A stretch of DNA of 41,106 bases from Candidatus Amesbacteria bacterium (GTDB lineage Bacteria; Patescibacteriota; Microgenomatia; CAZETR01; Amesbacteraceae): the NCBI GenBank assembly GCA_016219445.1, contig JACRNA010000019.1, forward strand, positions 1 through 41,106, in the 5' to 3' direction. The notes beneath the pieces are model-generated. The model was not told the origin of the DNA and did no database searches. It worked only from the letters and a program-made list of their open reading frames with translations. Both the position numbers and the translations under genes were made by a program. Shown here piece by piece: positions 24,565 through 31,909 of the stretch. Each line of letters begins with the position of its first letter. Position 1 is the stretch's first letter.

Positions 24565-24782
24565 TTAAATCCAGCTTTTTTGGGATTTGGCTATTTCGGA
24601 GGCCGCTTTCATGGCCTCTTTGCCACTTCCGGATTCACTGCGGTAAGCGGCAAATCCTTCTCTGACCATCGTCTCATTAATGAGTTTTCCGTCAACATAA
24701 ACGAGAGCCACGATCCGACCAAATTTGTCAACCACGGGTTCTTTAATTTGAACTTGTCGCTCGCCAGTCCTAACTTTTTCAT
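24565..24782 (-). pseudogene. Thermonuclease-family remnant (internal deletion and frameshift)
   Basis: One frame reads ...EPVVDKFGRIVALVYVDGKLINETMVREGFAAY...AASEIAKSQK (SNase C-terminal half) without a start; TG-A-TAAAAT-6 nt-ATG (24782, MKKLGL) lies in another frame. Confidence 0.7.
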
Positions 24783-24800
24783 TTTTTTATTTTATCATTT

Positions 24801-24836
24801 CCCAAATCTCCCCAATTACCCTAATCACCCTAATTA
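24801..24836 (+). repeat. Four degenerate tandem nonamers
   Basis: CCCAAATCT CCCCAATTA CCCTAATCA CCCTAATTA, ending 1 nt before palindrome A copy 1. Confidence 0.75.
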
Positions 24837-24837
24837 C

Positions 24838-24865
24838 TTTGCAAGAGGTCCTCTTGCAAATGGCT
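24838..24865. repeat. REP-like palindrome family A, copy 1
   Basis: TTTGCAAGAGG-T-CCTCTTGCAAA followed by TGGCT; perfect 11-bp arms. Confidence 0.92.
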
Positions 24866-24910
24866 GTGTTACGTCATTTATTGTAAATATAGTATTGTGG
24901 AAAGAAAATA

Positions 24911-24933
24911 TGTTCCACCTAAGAGGTGGAACA
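24911..24933. repeat. Palindrome C: TGTTCCACCT-AAG-AGGTGGAACA
   Basis: Perfect 10-bp arms, 23 nt in total, single copy in the window. Confidence 0.75.
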
Positions 24934-24982: not shown

Positions 24983-25351
24983 ATGACAAATATTGAAAAA
25001 TTGGAAAAAGAAATAGAGTTATTGAAGCTTCGTAACCTACGGATTGAGAAGGACAAACTTTGGGAGACAAGTTATACCCGCCGATTATTGATCGCAGTCT
25101 TTACTTTCTTGTCTATTGGAATATACATGTGGGCAATTGGTATTGACCGCCCGTGGCTCAATGCCATCGTCCCCACTGTCGGATTTACTTTGTCTACATT
25201 GAGCTTACCTTGGTTTAAGGAACTTTGGCATAGAATGCGTCTTTGGTTTAAAGATAGAGAAATTATGGAAGCTATTAGAATCGGTGAAGAAGAAGAAAAG
25301 GCAGGAAAATTAAAAACATTGTCCAAAGATTTACATGAATTATTGGAATAA
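24983..25351 (+). CDS. Small two-TM membrane protein with a charged antitoxin-like tail
   Basis: RNLRIEKDKLWETS...TM...PWLNAIVP...LSTLSLP, then EIMEAIRIGEEEEKAGKLKTL; promoter TTGCAA(24942)-17-TAAAAT(24965). Confidence 0.75.
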   Translation: MTNIEKLEKEIELLKLRNLRIEKDKLWETSYTRRLLIAVFTFLSIGIYMWAIGIDRPWLNAIVPTVGFTLSTLSLPWFKELWHRMRLWFKDREIMEAIRIGEEEEKAGKLKTLSKDLHELLE

Positions 25352-27123: not shown

Positions 27124-27716
27124 CCATTGACGAAAAGAAAATAGAGTTGGAAAAAATAGCCCGCGAGATTAGAGACTTTAAGGGTCTAGAAATTGCCAAG
27201 AATTGTATAAATGCTGTGCCGGGAGAGGGCGATCCCGATGCTAAGATTATGTTTATAGGCGAGGCTCCGGGAGCCGATGAAGACGCCCAAGGCCGACCTT
27301 TTGTAGGCAGGTCTGGACAGCTATTACGTCAAACTATTTCCGAAAGTAATATCAAAATAGACAAAGTTTTTATTACCAATATTGTCAAATACAGGCCACC
27401 GGAAAATAGAGATCCGGAGCCTTTGGAAATTGAGATTTGCAGAGATTGGCTGGACCGACAAATTCAAATAATTGAACCGGCCACGATAGTGACTCTTGGA
27501 CATTTTAGTATGGCAAAATTTTTACCAGATGTTAAAATATCTCAAGTACATGGGCATGGTCAAGAAATAATATTTCAAGAAAAAAAGTATTTTTTGGTAA
27601 CTATGTATCACCCAGCCTTCGCTATTCGTGGCACAAGCAATATGACTGAATTTAAAAAAGATTTTTCTCAATTAAGACAAATGGCAATTAATGCGTTAAA
27701 ATTACGGCGATGCTAA
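27120..27716 (+). CDS. Uracil-DNA glycosylase, family 4-like
   Basis: GEAPG...GRPFVGRSG, NIVKYRPPENRDP, YHPA. Confidence 0.93.
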   Translation: MTIDEKKIELEKIAREIRDFKGLEIAKNCINAVPGEGDPDAKIMFIGEAPGADEDAQGRPFVGRSGQLLRQTISESNIKIDKVFITNIVKYRPPENRDPEPLEIEICRDWLDRQIQIIEPATIVTLGHFSMAKFLPDVKISQVHGHGQEIIFQEKKYFLVTMYHPAFAIRGTSNMTEFKKDFSQLRQMAINALKLRRC

Positions 27717-29359
27717 AAATAATTTCACTTGGGGGATTTGGCAATGTCACCTCAAACATGTTTGCTTACGAGCTGGAAGATGAGATCTTGCTTATAGATT
27801 GTGGTATCGGCTTTCCATCCGAAGATATGCTGGGCATCGACATTTTGATTCCCGATTTCAGTTATCTCAAAGACAAAGTTCACAAAATCAAGGGGCTTAT
27901 TTTGACCCATGGCCACGAAGATCATATCGGAGCACTCCCCTACATCCTTCCACAAATTCCAAATGTCACAGTCTATGCCAGCAAGTTTCCTGCTCATTTG
28001 GTAATGGAAAAATTGGCCGAATATCAAAACATGCCCAAAACCATCCAGATTCTAAATCCCGGCACTCCACTTCATTTGGGTAAATTTACAATTACTTCAG
28101 TACGAATTTCTCACTCTATTCCCGACTCAACAAATTTAATTATTCAAACACTTGTTGGAACCATTTATCATGGCAGTGATTTCAAGGTAGACTTTACTCC
28201 AATAGACGGAGTCTTGCCAGAGCTGGGAAAAATCGCCGAAGCCGGAAACCGTGGAGTTCATTTATTACTCTCAGACAGTCTTGGAAGCGATAAGCCGGGT
28301 TATACCCCGTCTGAAAAAACTTTGAATAGTATGTTTGACCGGGAAATGTCTTCCTGTGAAGGTAAATTTATTATGACCACTATGGGCAGCAACATCAGCC
28401 GGTTTGGCCAAGTCATTACTGCAGCCGTCAAGCACGGACGCAGAATAGCAATATCGGGGCGATCCATGGAACGCAATATCAAAGTAGCTCTAAATCTTGG
28501 CTATCTCAAAGTACCCCAGAGTGTCTTTGTCGATTTAAAAGAAGTCAAAAAGTTACCAGCCAAGAACATCTGTGTTCTGATGGCCGGAGCCATGGGTCAA
28601 GTCGAGTCGGCAATGGGAAGACTCGGTCTTGGTGAGCACCGGGATATCGAGGTAAAGGCAGGTGACAAGGTTCTCTTTTCATCTACACCAATTCCGGGAA
28701 CCGAATCAGATGTCGAAAATTTGATCAACCAGCTGACCGAGCTCGGGGCAGAGGTCATCCACTCTGGAATTTCGAGTGACCTCCATGTCTCGGGTCACCC
28801 TCACCAGCAAGAATTGCTCTTGATGATGAATTTGGTTAAGCCAAAATATTTGCTTCCCATGGGTGGCACTTATCAGCATATGGTAAGTTATGCCAAGCTC
28901 GCCAAATCTATGGGCTATACCGCTGACAAAATATTACTTCCCAAACACAGCCAGACAATTGAAGTTTATCCAGATATTGTCAAATTGGGTCCTGCCTTAC
29001 CGATTCGGAAAATTATGGTTGATGGCTTGGGTGTTGGCGACGTCGGCAACGTGGTCCTACGAGACCGGCAAATGCTGGCCAAAGAGGGCATGGTGGTAGC
29101 GGTTATCGAAGTCGATCAAAATGATCTGTCAAAAATTACCAACATAGAATTAATAAGCCGAGGTTTTGTCTTTACCAAAGAAGCGGGAGATCTTCTCAAT
29201 CACGGAGCTCAAGAAGTTACAAAAGCAGTTGCCTCCCGTAAAGACAAAATTGATTCTGATAGGGTAGTCAAAAGTATTGCAGTCGACACTCTCGAAAAAT
29301 TCTTCTTTCACAAAACCGCAAGAAGACCTATGATCCTGCCTGTGGTGGTTGAGGTTTAA
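27710..29359 (+). CDS. rnj: Ribonuclease J
   Basis: SLGG, IDCG, THGHEDHIG, HSIPD, DFKVD, HVSGH, VDGLGVGDVG, RRPMILP; TAAAAT 7 nt upstream of the ATG. Confidence 0.96.
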   Translation: MLKIISLGGFGNVTSNMFAYELEDEILLIDCGIGFPSEDMLGIDILIPDFSYLKDKVHKIKGLILTHGHEDHIGALPYILPQIPNVTVYASKFPAHLVMEKLAEYQNMPKTIQILNPGTPLHLGKFTITSVRISHSIPDSTNLIIQTLVGTIYHGSDFKVDFTPIDGVLPELGKIAEAGNRGVHLLLSDSLGSDKPGYTPSEKTLNSMFDREMSSCEGKFIMTTMGSNISRFGQVITAAVKHGRRIAISGRSMERNIKVALNLGYLKVPQSVFVDLKEVKKLPAKNICVLMAGAMGQVESAMGRLGLGEHRDIEVKAGDKVLFSSTPIPGTESDVENLINQLTELGAEVIHSGISSDLHVSGHPHQQELLLMMNLVKPKYLLPMGGTYQHMVSYAKLAKSMGYTADKILLPKHSQTIEVYPDIVKLGPALPIRKIMVDGLGVGDVGNVVLRDRQMLAKEGMVVAVIEVDQNDLSKITNIELISRGFVFTKEAGDLLNHGAQEVTKAVASRKDKIDSDRVVKSIAVDTLEKFFFHKTARRPMILPVVVEV

Positions 29360-29378
29360 ACTATAAGGACGGTCGAGA

Positions 29379-29409
29379 TTTGCAAGAGGATCTCTTGCAA
29401 ACGGCTATA
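29379..29409. repeat. REP-like palindrome family A, copy 2 (at the transposase 3' end)
   Basis: TTTGCAAGAGG-A-TCTCTTGCAAA followed by CGGCTATA; the transposase stop codon lies in this tail. Confidence 0.92.
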
Positions 29410-30082
29410 ATTCGCCATTAATATCAATAGCTATGTCTGTCAGATACTCAGGATCAATAGACATCCCCATAAAATTTCGGTAAGTAAATTTCTGCTTGGA
29501 AAGCGAAAAATAATCTAAAATGTGGTTGGTCTTGATCCAATTGGTTTTTCTTTCTCCAAGATATTCCGGAAGCGATGATGGCAACGATAAACTTGATGCT
29601 TTAATTGGGTTATTGTGTATATAGCGGGACAGATGGAGAAGTTGTTCCTCGGACTGGACCAAGACAGCTTTATATACATCTTGAAACAAGACTCCCTTTC
29701 TTTTGTACTTACGATTGAAATACATTGCATATCGAGTACCAAGTGAATTTGCAAAACTATTGATCACAACTTCTCTTTGCTGAATTAAAAGATGAAAATG
29801 ATTTGGCATTAAGGCATAGCACACTAAGTCTAAATCTTCGGAATAATTTTTGAGTTTTAATAATTTTAAAGCTTTATCTTTTTCTTTTGGAGTTGAATTT
29901 GGAGAAGAAAGCACCTCCTCTAGGTTATCTATGTCCACTGGTGACAAATATGTCTGTAGATAAGACAGAAAAACAGAATAATCCTGCTCGTCCATAAATA
30001 TCTTCCTTTGTTCAACCCCACGGTTGTAAATATGGTAATAAGAATTGGGAATATAATCTTTAACCGAGTTCCTTGAAGCCAT
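29405..30082 (-). mobile_element. HUH Y1 tyrosine transposase, RAYT / IS200-like
   Basis: YYHIYNRG...IF...DY, YALMPNHFHLL (HUH), YFNRKY.R.G.LFQ..YK, YIHNNP (catalytic Tyr plus the NP motif typical of RAYTs); flanked by identical hairpins. Confidence 0.92.
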
Positions 30083-30109
30083 ACTTTATCTTAGGATTTT
30101 GTTTTCACC

Positions 30110-30147
30110 TTTGCAAGAGGACCTCTTGCAAATGGCTATATATAGCC
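30110..30147. repeat. REP-like palindrome family A, copy 3 (upstream of the transposase)
   Basis: TTTGCAAGAGG-A-CCTCTTGCAAA followed by TGGCTATATATAGCC, whose GGCTATATATAGCC part is itself palindromic. Confidence 0.92.
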
Positions 30148-30148
30148 C

Positions 30149-31909
30149 TTATACTTTAAGTACCATCAAGAATGCCTCCTGTGGGATTTCGACACGGCCG
30201 ACGGATTTCATTCTGGCCTTGCCTTTCTTTTGAATTTTTAGAAGTTTATCTTTACGGGTTTGATCTCCGCCAGACAATTTGGCAATGACATCTTTTCTGT
30301 AGGCTTTGATATCGGCACGAGCGACAATCTTGGCACCAACAGCAGCTTGAATTGCCACTTCATATTGCTGACGGGGAATGGCGATATGCAATTTGTCTAC
30401 CAAGTTTTTGCCGATTATTGTAGCGTTTTCCCGCGGTACTATCTGGGAAAATGCATCCACCCTTTCGGTATTTACCAGGACATCGAGTCTGACTAGATCT
30501 GATGACTTAAATCCCAAAACTTCATAATCAATCGTGGCATAGCCAGATGAGACACTTTTTAATCTGTCATAAAACTCACGGATTAGCTCTGCAAACGGCA
30601 TCTGATAGACAAGGCTTACCTGCGTCTCGGCATAAGCCATATCCAGAAGTTCCGCCCGACTCGACTGACACAATTGAATTACTGGGCCGACATAATCAGA
30701 AGGGGTAAAGACTGAGAGTCGTATCATTGGTTCGCGGATTTCTTTGATCTGCGAAGGATCCAGTAAATCACCTGCTTTGGAAATAGTTTTTAGTTCATTG
30801 TTTGTAGTTAATAGTTCATAAGCCACTGACGGTGCACAGGCAATCAAGGTTAATCCAAATTCCCTCTCGAGTCTTTCCTGAATTATGTCAGTATGTAGTA
30901 AACCTAATGCACCTATCCGAAATCCGTTTCCCAAAGCCGGAGAATGTTCTGCAGAGTAGGTCAAGGCGGAGTCAGTCATTTTTAGCTTTTCCAAAGCATC
31001 GCGCATCAAATTTATTTCTGCCCCGTCTGTCGGATAGAAACTCATAAAGACCACTGGTTTTATTGGACTATACCCCGGTAATGGGTTATTAGTTGGTTGG
31101 TTACTTAGTGTGTCACCGACAGTCAGCAAAGATATATCTTTAAGCGAAGTTACGATATAACCTACTTCACCGGCAGATAATTTTTCAATAATTTTTCTAT
31201 GAGGCGCAAATACTCCCACTTCAATCACTTTGGTCCAAGTCTTAGTTCCCAAGAGTAATATTTTGTCTCCGCTTTTTATCTCACCGTCAATCATTCTTAC
31301 CCAGGCCACTACTCCTAAATGAGTATCATAGTTTGAGTTAAAGACAAGTGCGCGTGTCTGATTTGGGATTTGAGATTTAGGATTTGGGATTTGAGAAATA
31401 ATTTGATTAATTAAAGTGTCTACTCCAACTCCAGTTTTGGCAGAAACTTTGATAATCTCTTCTGTATCAAATCCAAAAATCTGTTGCATTTGTGAAAATG
31501 TTTTGGTAATTTCAGCGGTTCCAACATCAATTTTGTTGACAACTGGGATAATGACCAAGCCCAATTTTTTTGCTTGATTGTAGTGAGCCAGAGTTTGGGC
31601 TTGGACTCCTTGGGTCGCATCCACAAGCAAGATCACACCTTCACACGCAGCCAAACTTCTTGATACTTCATAGCTAAAGTCCACGTGCCCTGGTGTGTCA
31701 ATTAAATTTAATATAAAATCTTTATATAACATTCTGACAGGAGCAAGCTTTATTGTGATACCGCGTTCACGCTCGATAGGATTACTATCCAGCATTTGCT
31801 CCCGAAGATCGCGCTTGGCAACTGTACCGGTAAACTCCATCAACCTATCGGCCAAAGTCGATTTTCCATGATCAATGTGCGCCACAATTGCAAAATTTCG
31901 TATATTCAT
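30149..31909 (-). CDS. lepA: Elongation factor 4 (LepA)
   Basis: IRNFAIVAHIDHGKSTLADR, NLIDTPGHVDFSYEVSRS, ERLEREF, IPRQQY, RKDVIAK.SGGD. Confidence 0.98.
   Translation of the reverse strand: MNIRNFAIVAHIDHGKSTLADRLMEFTGTVAKRDLREQMLDSNPIERERGITIKLAPVRMLYKDFILNLIDTPGHVDFSYEVSRSLAACEGVILLVDATQGVQAQTLAHYNQAKKLGLVIIPVVNKIDVGTAEITKTFSQMQQIFGFDTEEIIKVSAKTGVGVDTLINQIISQIPNPKSQIPNQTRALVFNSNYDTHLGVVAWVRMIDGEIKSGDKILLLGTKTWTKVIEVGVFAPHRKIIEKLSAGEVGYIVTSLKDISLLTVGDTLSNQPTNNPLPGYSPIKPVVFMSFYPTDGAEINLMRDALEKLKMTDSALTYSAEHSPALGNGFRIGALGLLHTDIIQERLEREFGLTLIACAPSVAYELLTTNNELKTISKAGDLLDPSQIKEIREPMIRLSVFTPSDYVGPVIQLCQSSRAELLDMAYAETQVSLVYQMPFAELIREFYDRLKSVSSGYATIDYEVLGFKSSDLVRLDVLVNTERVDAFSQIVPRENATIIGKNLVDKLHIAIPRQQYEVAIQAAVGAKIVARADIKAYRKDVIAKLSGGDQTRKDKLLKIQKKGKARMKSVGRVEIPQEAFLMVLKV
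30784..30818. repeat. Five degenerate heptamers inside lepA
   Basis: TAGTTTT TAGTTCA TTGTTTG TAGTTAA TAGTTCA, encoding ELLTTNNELKT on the minus strand. Confidence 0.6.
31360..31394. repeat. Five GATTTRR heptamers inside lepA
   Basis: GATTTGG GATTTGA GATTTAG GATTTGG GATTTGA, encoding SQIPNPKSQIPN. Confidence 0.8.

Follow-up and report, generated by a model that had tools for sequence, protein, structure and literature searches.

REP-associated tyrosine transposases (RAYTs; REP, repetitive extragenic palindrome) are, in the usual account, descended from IS200-type transposases (IS, insertion sequence) but domesticated and no longer mobile, and how the one turned into the other is an open question. 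The question arises again at a locus in a 41,106-nt stretch of DNA from a Candidatus Amesbacteria bacterium (contig JACRNA010000019.1; hereafter, this whole stretch is the window), in which a gene for a RAYT-like HUH enzyme of the Y1 type lies between two copies of a 23-nt hairpin. Is this a resident RAYT that acts in trans on a REP family of its own, as a sequence-only reading of the window had proposed, is it an ordinary insertion sequence, or does it combine features of both? Our answer is that it is probably a single-gene mobile cassette, in which a class-2 TnpA-Y1 (RAYT/TIRYT-type) HUH tyrosine nuclease is carried in the DNA layout of an IS200/IS605 element. Four lines of evidence bear on this: hairpins that are cognate to the enzyme, the discreteness of the insertion, the class of the enzyme, and a rule that holds across the enzyme family.

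The window is contig C19 of the source genome (G000), which comprises 810,084 bp in 47 contigs and is 95.5% complete. It was compared with three congeners (G001, G002, and G003) and, more widely, within a set of 61 genomes (the source genome and 60 relatives), in which individual loci are given L-numbers. The palindrome, TTTGCAAGAGG-N-(C/T)CTCTTGCAAA, does flank the Y1 gene and does recur at a distance, as had been claimed: it is present at 24838-24860, at 29379-29401 (with one stem mismatch), and at 30110-30132. A pattern search of the window returned six matches, i.e., these three sites on both strands, where 0.05 would be expected by chance, and 0 of 100 shuffled sequences reached six. Folded as single-stranded DNA (ssDNA), all three copies give a stem of 10 bp closed by a loop of 3 nt, with z scores from −3.3 to −5.7 relative to shuffles. 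The one-sided YGGCT tail is found on the plus-strand 3′ side of all three copies, which therefore have one common orientation. On the gene strand, the foot 5′ of the hairpin reads TAGCCA, TAGCCG, and CAGCCA across the three. The upstream (left-end) hairpin (30110-30132, minus strand) ends 27 nt before the ATG of the Y1 gene, and its foot, TAGCCA (30133-30138, minus strand), lies within a second small palindrome, GGCTATATATAGCC (30134-30147). The downstream (right-end) hairpin (29379-29401, minus strand) is the one with the stem mismatch; its foot, TAGCCG (29402-29407, minus strand), begins with the TAG that serves as the stop codon of the gene.

The foot is conserved well beyond these copies. 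We compared 18 related hairpin copies of this type, drawn from the source genome, from a solo copy in G001, and from nine named loci. In 13 of the 18, on either side of the gene, the gene strand has GCC at positions −4 to −2, with a single base between it and the stem; the remaining five are diverged variants of the hairpin. In the relatives L074-L078 (61%-69% identical), foot and orientation are alike on both sides of the gene, as in the source genome, and in an alignment of six copies (A3) the hairpin arm and AAA-N-GGC are invariant. The proposal that the enzyme has a cognate hairpin with a foot other than GTAG thus stands, with GCC as the core of that foot.

The gene and its two hairpins form a discrete insertion between RNase J (rnj, 27710-29359, plus strand) and LepA (30149-31909, minus strand), which are convergent. 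An empty site at this junction had been suggested as something to look for in relatives, and one was found in both G001 and G002, whose LepA C-termini are 97%-98% identical to that of the source genome and whose flanking DNA is about 82%-89% identical. In these two genomes the convergent genes rnj and lepA touch or overlap and leave no intervening DNA (…GAGGTCTAAACTTTAAGTACC…); the alignment to the window breaks at 29361/29370 and resumes at 30150. The inserted cassette is 793 bp in length and occupies 29360-30152 or 29363-30155 (minus strand), the choice being set by a 3-nt (ACT) ambiguity at the border. Insertion 3′ of a fixed tetra- or pentanucleotide, without target duplication, is expected of IS200/IS605 elements; the material for this comparison is one clean junction, with the ACT ambiguity, and a miniature unit in G001 (see below) whose 5′ flank differs. 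Read along the gene strand, the cassette starts 20-23 nt ahead of the left hairpin and ends 16-19 nt beyond the right one, distances that we take to be the IS200/IS605 geometry known from IS608. Because the site is empty in two congeners, the gene is not a fixed, domesticated resident at rnj-lepA.

The ends of the cassette carry ATAAGG (29363-29368) and, at the opposite end, its inverted complement CCTTAT (30147-30152). The latter supplies the lepA stop codon (30149-31, TAA on the minus strand) and the last base of the final Val codon. Despite this stop from the cassette end, the end of LepA (…LKV*) is identical in the source genome and in the genomes with empty sites.

The closest cassette among the relatives, in G014 (72% identical), likewise has this hairpin with a GCC foot on each side but occupies another locus. 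There, 1223 bp separate the flanks, as compared with 30 bp in its congener G023; the G014 insert also contains an open reading frame (ORF) of 118 amino acids (aa). In G003, the rnj-lepA junction holds a different insert, with two small ORFs that resemble Phd and RelE. It may be added that Phd/YefM-RelE-like pairs, recognized by eye from translations, are present both there (L033, 2079-2629) and downstream of pnp in G002 (L051, ~2190-2740), and that these pairs occupy the places of the Y1 cassette or of solo hairpins in the source genome.

Considered as DNA alone, the unit could be taken for an ordinary autonomous insertion sequence of the IS200/IS605 family, with the flanking hairpins as its two ends, left and right, and the third hairpin copy as a scar. 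It has subterminal hairpins in the same orientation, it is a discrete insertion with an empty site in congeners, the hairpin exists in three copies only (see below), and the borders lie ~20 nt outside each hairpin, presumably as in IS608. This explanation is nonetheless improbable. The gene (29405-30082, minus strand) encodes a protein of 225 aa (P0001) that matches Pfam Y1_Tnp (PF01797) with 40.7 bits (cut-off 23), and that has an HUH motif, N94-H95-F96-H97, and a catalytic-type tyrosine, Y154, in RYIHNNP. The Pfam scan gave nothing besides Y1_Tnp at E 1 or better, and none of the C-terminal helix-turn-helix (HTH) domains Bac_DnaA_C, HTH_23, and HTH_28. In an alignment of 23 family members (A1), the invariant residues are H17, N20, G22, N94-H95-F96-H97, Q102, Y118, Y154-I155, and N158; at least 90% of the sequences have P159, and FQ and a serine-rich SS tail are also conserved.

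In the classification of Quentin et al. 2018 (PMC6006769), class 1 (IS200) is marked by Y---Q together with DH[VI]H, and class 2 (TnpA-REP and kin) by Y---NP; Table 1 of that source lists, for subclass 2.1, NH[YF]H / FQ / Y[IV]HLNP / SS and a median length of 238 aa. The A1 consensus fits the subclass 2.1 row, with P0001 itself reading YIHNNP, as judged by comparison of motifs rather than from a tree. The class-1 signatures Y---Q and DH[VI]H do not occur in P0001, which has YIHNNP and NHFH instead.

Profile searches and the predicted fold agree with the motifs. All 23 members of A1 match the NCBIfam model REP_Tyr_transpos (best E 1e-15), and no other NCBIfam model is matched at E 0.01 or better. 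The IS200 hidden Markov model (HMM) NF033573 (cut-off 55 bits) has no match on P0001 at E 1 or better and reaches 13-14 bits on its paralogs; the same model does detect a true IS200-type tnpA, split over two frames, elsewhere in the source genome (C3:175-517, 71 bits). An AlphaFold model built from A1 (pLDDT 85.4, pTM 0.82) has as its top Foldseek match 4ER8, the Escherichia coli RAYT bound to a REP hairpin (E 1.1e-4). VIA-align superimposes residues 3-223 of the model on residues 1-165 of the 4ER8 chain (Z 15.2, rmsd 3.3, 157/165 residues), whereas IS608, ISDra2, and IS200 give Z 9.7 or less, over ~100 residues that end near residue 146. A single-sequence search of PDB sequences with P0001 found no match, and a profile search of them gave weak ISDra2 matches only (E 0.007), with 4ER8 not among them. 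These sequence searches are uninformative, and the link to RAYTs therefore rests on fold, motifs, and the NCBIfam HMM.

On these three grounds P0001 is an enzyme of the RAYT/TIRYT class and not of the IS200 class, which upholds the proposed RAYT-like identity. Other features, too, speak against an IS200/IS605 element: there is one copy of the gene, no near-identical duplicate, and no tnpB, and the solo hairpin retains hairpin and foot only, with no IS end. The sequence-only reading had named two findings that would together point to ordinary IS ends plus one scar, namely, that only three copies of the hairpin exist and that the protein groups with IS200 TnpA; the first is what we found and the second is not. 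Homologs of P0001 are abundant, with at least 7459 at E 1e-5 or better among 8000 candidates scored (5.8 billion proteins searched). Their names include Gottesmanbacteria, Daviesbacteria, Levybacteria, and other Microgenomates, and, judging from these names, the host is of the Microgenomates type within the CPR (candidate phyla radiation), as had been supposed. The sources that name the homologs call them “transposase” or hypothetical.

A different question is whether the enzyme has a REP family to serve. The sequence-only reading was that of a domesticated, immobile RAYT that spreads or maintains REP-like hairpins in trans. In its favor are the RAYT-class enzyme, the single-copy gene, the private hairpin family of each paralog with intergenic solos (described below), and a solo in G001, where no orthologue was found. 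The genome-wide count points the other way. There are five palindrome sites in the 810,084 bases of the source genome, three extragenic and two intragenic. The extragenic ones are the two cassette flanks and the one solo at 24838. We rejected both intragenic sites as family members. One (C45:9142-9164) is tail-less and codes for LQEDLL in the CCA-adding enzyme (Pfam PolyA_pol), where it stands immediately ahead of RRDFTINA, which we take to be a conserved motif of the CCA-adding enzyme family. The other (C47:10288-10330), also tail-less, codes for LQEDLL inside a variable loop of folD. Because TTG CAA GAG GAC CTC TTG is itself palindromic, the cca and folD sites are coding look-alikes. As a side observation, a second half-palindrome near the C47 site codes for KEVLLS; the folD loop is six residues longer in the source genome than in G002, and, as far as sequence comparison goes, an in-frame insertion at this site is possible.

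The bona fide hairpin family of P0001 in the source genome thus consists of three copies only, and the REP family that had been claimed is not a dispersed one. No inverted (REPIN-like) doublets of this hairpin occur in the 810-kb genome. Across the 61 genomes, the palindrome pattern is found in eight, with one or two sites each outside the source genome, some of which are probably the cca site. A domesticated RAYT is therefore unlikely, given one solo only and no doublets, and also given that gene and hairpins are present or absent together between congeners and lie at different sites in different genera, which is not vertical residence.

The third copy, solo hairpin plus foot CAGCCA (24838-24866, minus strand), is intergenic and has no cassette ends. 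It lies between a minus-strand ORF (24609-24782) and a plus-strand ORF (24983-25351), with a PNPase gene upstream. About 50 nt away is a hairpin of a different family, GTTCCACCTAAGAGGTGGAAC (24912-24932, plus strand), which is cognate to a paralog elsewhere in the source genome (C40:5727-6374) and has nine sites genome-wide, so that a single intergenic region holds the “addresses” of two enzymes. A related solo is found in the same intergenic region of G001, a genome that is about 90% complete and in which no P0001 orthologue was found (best match 54% identical). The G001 solo has AGTATAAGG…CTTAT around it, which are also the end sequences of the cassette in the source genome. From this framing it resembles a version of the cassette reduced to a miniature without the gene, which fits past mobilization or internal deletion. 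Present activity in trans, which had been suggested from the third copy, does not follow from these observations. We also note that short AATTACCC-like repeats (CCCCAATTACCCTAATCACCCTAATTAC) adjoin the solo in the window (24800-24837), and that similar repeats lie on the opposite side of the G001 solo.

P0001 is not the only enzyme of its kind in this genome. The source genome has six matches to it including itself, five of which are intact, the other four intact ones being 53%, 44%, 37%, and 36% identical to P0001. The further Y1 paralogs (53%-35% identical) are at C9:41025-41669, C13:13009-13602, C8:18535-19095, C40:5727-6374, and C33:25073-25444. In the C33 paralog, NRLDLL replaces the HUH motif and no obvious hairpins are seen; from its sequence, it may be inactive. 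All five intact paralogs have a hairpin of their own on both sides. Counted with two or fewer mismatches over the whole source genome, the hairpin of the C9 paralog, TGAAGGGCGTCCCCCTTCA, has six sites; that of C13, CCCACCTCTCGGGTGGG, has four; that of C8, CCCACCTCGGAGGTGGG, has 10; and that of C40, GTTCCACCTAAGAGGTGGAAC, has nine. The flanking copies are direct for C13 and C40 and inverted for C9 and C8. When the genome was scanned de novo for repeated perfect hairpins, the paralog hairpin families were among the most repeated, and two or three unrelated palindrome families ranked alongside them. In the C9 paralog (L026), part of its own repeat (half of the hairpin and the tail) also recurs in frame at C9:41167-41181, where it codes for KGVPLQSYPH after the tyrosine motif. 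A hairpin of the C8 type was seen, in addition, ~180 nt downstream of the split IS200 tnpA mentioned above (C3:694-710).

No clean empty site was found for the other paralogs of the source genome, for which the C40-type and C9-type loci were compared. At the place corresponding to the C40-type locus, G001 has 2.9 kb of other DNA. The C9-type intergenic site holds L026 on one strand in the source genome and, on the other strand in G001 (L061, C30), a different paralog that is ~36% identical to P0001 and has the hairpins GACTTCCACCTTCCAGGTGGAAGTC; in G003 (L063, C5), the site holds an unrelated small ORF. This junction seems to have been colonized repeatedly.

The association of enzyme and private repeat is a rule in the family. 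Homologs of P0001 occur in 46 of the 61 genomes, with up to 19 matches in one genome. We scored a locus as bracketed if an exact word of at least 12 nt was common to the gene's own 200-nt upstream and downstream flanks. In a first sample, 20 of 24 loci shared such a word, as opposed to 24 of 552 mismatched upstream/downstream pairs. The mismatched matches include those of the closest protein relatives L006, L007, and L008, cross-matches that fit joint divergence of hairpin and enzyme. In a second sample, which comprised 75 of 80 named loci (short flanks excluded four others, and the motif filter found no gene in a fifth), 54 of 75 loci shared a word, versus 337 of 5550 mismatched pairs (6%). 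In 26 of these 75 loci (counted from the table), a stretch of the flank repeat of at least 19 nt is also found inside the gene; the clade of P0001 has no in-gene repeat copy.

That these hairpins serve the host as terminators or RNA stabilizers, as regulatory elements that lie beside the gene by chance, is very improbable. The flanking copies do lie in a convergent intergenic position, 20 nt past the stop codon of rnj and 16 nt from that of lepA. However, there is no T-run 3′ of either one, a terminator scan reports only the small GGCTATATATAGCC palindrome and neither flanking hairpin, the solo lies between divergently oriented ORFs, hairpin sequences go with enzyme lineages from genome to genome and are distinct in every paralog, and the hairpins are missing together with the gene at empty sites. 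A promoter scan gave no sigma-70-like site on the gene strand by its criteria; TTGCAA-17 nt-TAAGAT (8/12 matches), which was spotted by eye, overlaps the upstream hairpin, and we conclude nothing from it.

Several observations weigh against a mobile cassette of the kind that we propose and should be set out together. As to the enzyme, P0001 scores 43.8 bits with REP_Tyr_transpos, which is under the 80-bit equivalog cut-off. As to copy number, the source genome has one copy of the gene only, the next paralog being 53% identical, and no near-identical copy was found in 5.8 billion proteins, the best being 79% identical; the single-copy state fits movement without gain in copy number. As to layout, two of the five intact paralogs of the source genome (the C9 and C8 types) carry inverted rather than direct flanking hairpins, and the shared repeats of the 54 bracketed loci divide into 35 direct, 16 inverted, and three tied. 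As to the borders, ACT…ACT and the 6-bp inverted ends ATAAGG/CCTTAT formally fit a short target duplication as well; to our knowledge, Y1 enzymes make no target duplication. The pattern of presence and absence could also have come about by precise loss, and recent transposition is not demonstrated. Cleavage, excision, and a circle junction are so far predictions of the model.

Public sequence data belong with these points. The contigs of three public runs (from one study), one of which, X1, may be the source of this DNA, show no rnj-lepA joint across the cassette; contigs break at the hairpins, and run X3 gave nothing. In run X1, the unitig of the cassette (29361-30139) has a k-mer depth of 23.8, versus 37.6 and 36.3 for the flanking contigs (14 kb and 8 kb, respectively), and a 48-nt variant unitig with a depth of 9.9 covers 29361-29408. 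The lower depth of the cassette may mean that some cells are without it or that the population is heterogeneous, a depth given per contig being a hint at most.

How would such a single-gene cassette work? The following is modeled on IS608/ISDra2 and on E. coli TnpA-REP, by analogy with which we infer the cleavage positions, the strand used, and the mobilizer of the solo. The enzyme would bind the hairpin together with its 5′ foot on ssDNA. It would then use Y154 and a metal bound by the HUH motif to cut ~20 nt outside the left hairpin, on its 5′ side, and ~16-19 nt outside the right one, on its 3′ side, and the whole excised strand of 793 nt would be transferred to a new site (“peel and paste”). 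On this model the cassette would have entered the site where the convergent genes rnj and lepA overlap, or would not yet have left it, and would have given lepA a new stop codon. It is one of five intact and mutually divergent enzyme-hairpin pairs in a 0.8-Mb genome, each with its own hairpin sequence and a handful of solos.

Why the locus matters can be said briefly. A RAYT-class enzyme and an IS200-type layout are joined here, and the empty site, defined to the base in sister genomes, shows that the whole unit comes and goes. With five mutually exclusive enzyme-hairpin pairs in a 0.8-Mb genome, specificity can be read from the covariation of residues, hairpin, and foot. For annotation, it is relevant that the end of the cassette supplies the stop codon of lepA, a gene of the essential type, a case that illustrates how such elements can sit harmlessly in the overlapping gene ends of streamlined genomes. 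What this locus adds is the base-level empty site, the cassette-supplied lepA stop, and the five private enzyme-hairpin pairs in one genome. A much wider proposal, which we put forward tentatively and regard as possible rather than likely, is that CPR/Microgenomates harbor a radiation of still-mobile, single-copy RAYT-class cassettes with private hairpin-plus-foot “addresses” (up to 19 matches per genome), which move by cut-and-paste without copy gain, recolonize junctions, and are a living intermediate between IS200 and domesticated RAYT/REP systems. If true, the radiation would offer, ready-made in nature, ssDNA nucleases that are each paired orthogonally with a recognition hairpin.

It remains to compare the cassette with known systems. 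A literature search returned no relevant paper that links the terms RAYT, TnpA-REP, TIRYT, or IS200 with CPR, Patescibacteria, Microgenomates, or Gottesmanbacteria; among the papers found, only one contains “REP-associated tyrosine transposase” as well as “Patescibacteria,” and its subject is an archaeal locus. With IS200/IS608 (subclass 1.1), the cassette shares one small Y1 gene between two subterminal hairpins on the same strand, a discrete insertion of ~0.8 kb, and, by analogy, probably the ssDNA chemistry. It differs in enzyme class (by motifs, HMM, and fold), in that the protein has ~70 aa more, with a helical insertion and a tail at the C-terminus, and in having neither multiple identical copies nor tnpB.

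The likeness to REPtrons (RAYT/TnpA-REP, 4ER8; class 2 in PMC6006769) lies in Y---NP, in an HUH motif that starts with N, in the fold including its C-terminal part (Z 15.2), and in a single-copy gene. Each paralog is likewise bracketed by its own hairpin with a conserved 5′ foot, and divergent paralogs coexist in one genome. The foot, however, is GT[AG]G in REPtrons and GCC-N in the cassette, the flanking hairpins are inverted there and direct here, and tens to hundreds of copies contrast with three. Unlike a REPtron, moreover, the cassette is a discrete insertion that is missing from congeners, and its enzyme falls under the NCBIfam equivalog cut-off (43.8 vs. 80 bits). Vertical inheritance at a fixed locus, by which RAYTs are recognized, is not seen: the cassette is absent from G001 and G002, and that of G014 lies elsewhere.

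The third comparison is with the TIRtron and its enzyme, TIRYT (Di Nocera et al. 2013, PMC3733652), which PMC6006769 equates with subclass 2.1 and with Group 1 of Bertels (PMC5581495); the latter source counts Group 1 among the RAYT groups that most resemble ISs. TIRtrons lack some of what is seen here: hairpins are the rule in our loci, whereas PMC6006769 reports no REP-like hairpins near 2.1 genes. The cassette, for its part, ends in ATAAGG/CCTTAT instead of the GGGGWSAS terminal repeats, and P0001 has no C-terminal HTH-like domain of the TIRYT kind by Pfam at E 1 or better. Shared features are the NH[YF]H / FQ / Y[IV]HLNP / SS signature and a length of about 225-238 aa (a likeness by motifs only), low-copy families of flanking repeats, and short inverted ends.

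Two further repeats of the source genome, which touch none of these comparisons, are recorded here for completeness. One, CCCC-CTCTCCTAAATTAGGAGAG-GGGG or CCCTCTTAAATTAAGAGGG, has 7-12 sites in the source genome (including C9:39994-40012, C23:535, C24:23978, C29:2403, C33:30553, C42:1566, and C14:795 and 999) and is part of a unit of ~65 bp that recurs in G001 and G003. The other, the palindrome CGTTAGTATATCATACTAACG, is found with identical flanks at five contig ends (C9:106, C16:106, C32:106, C33:63, and C6:37753) and is part of a multi-copy repeat at which the assembly breaks. As for the cassette itself, its closest known kinds are the REPtron and the TIRtron, i.e., TnpA-Y1 class 2, here in an IS200-like layout.

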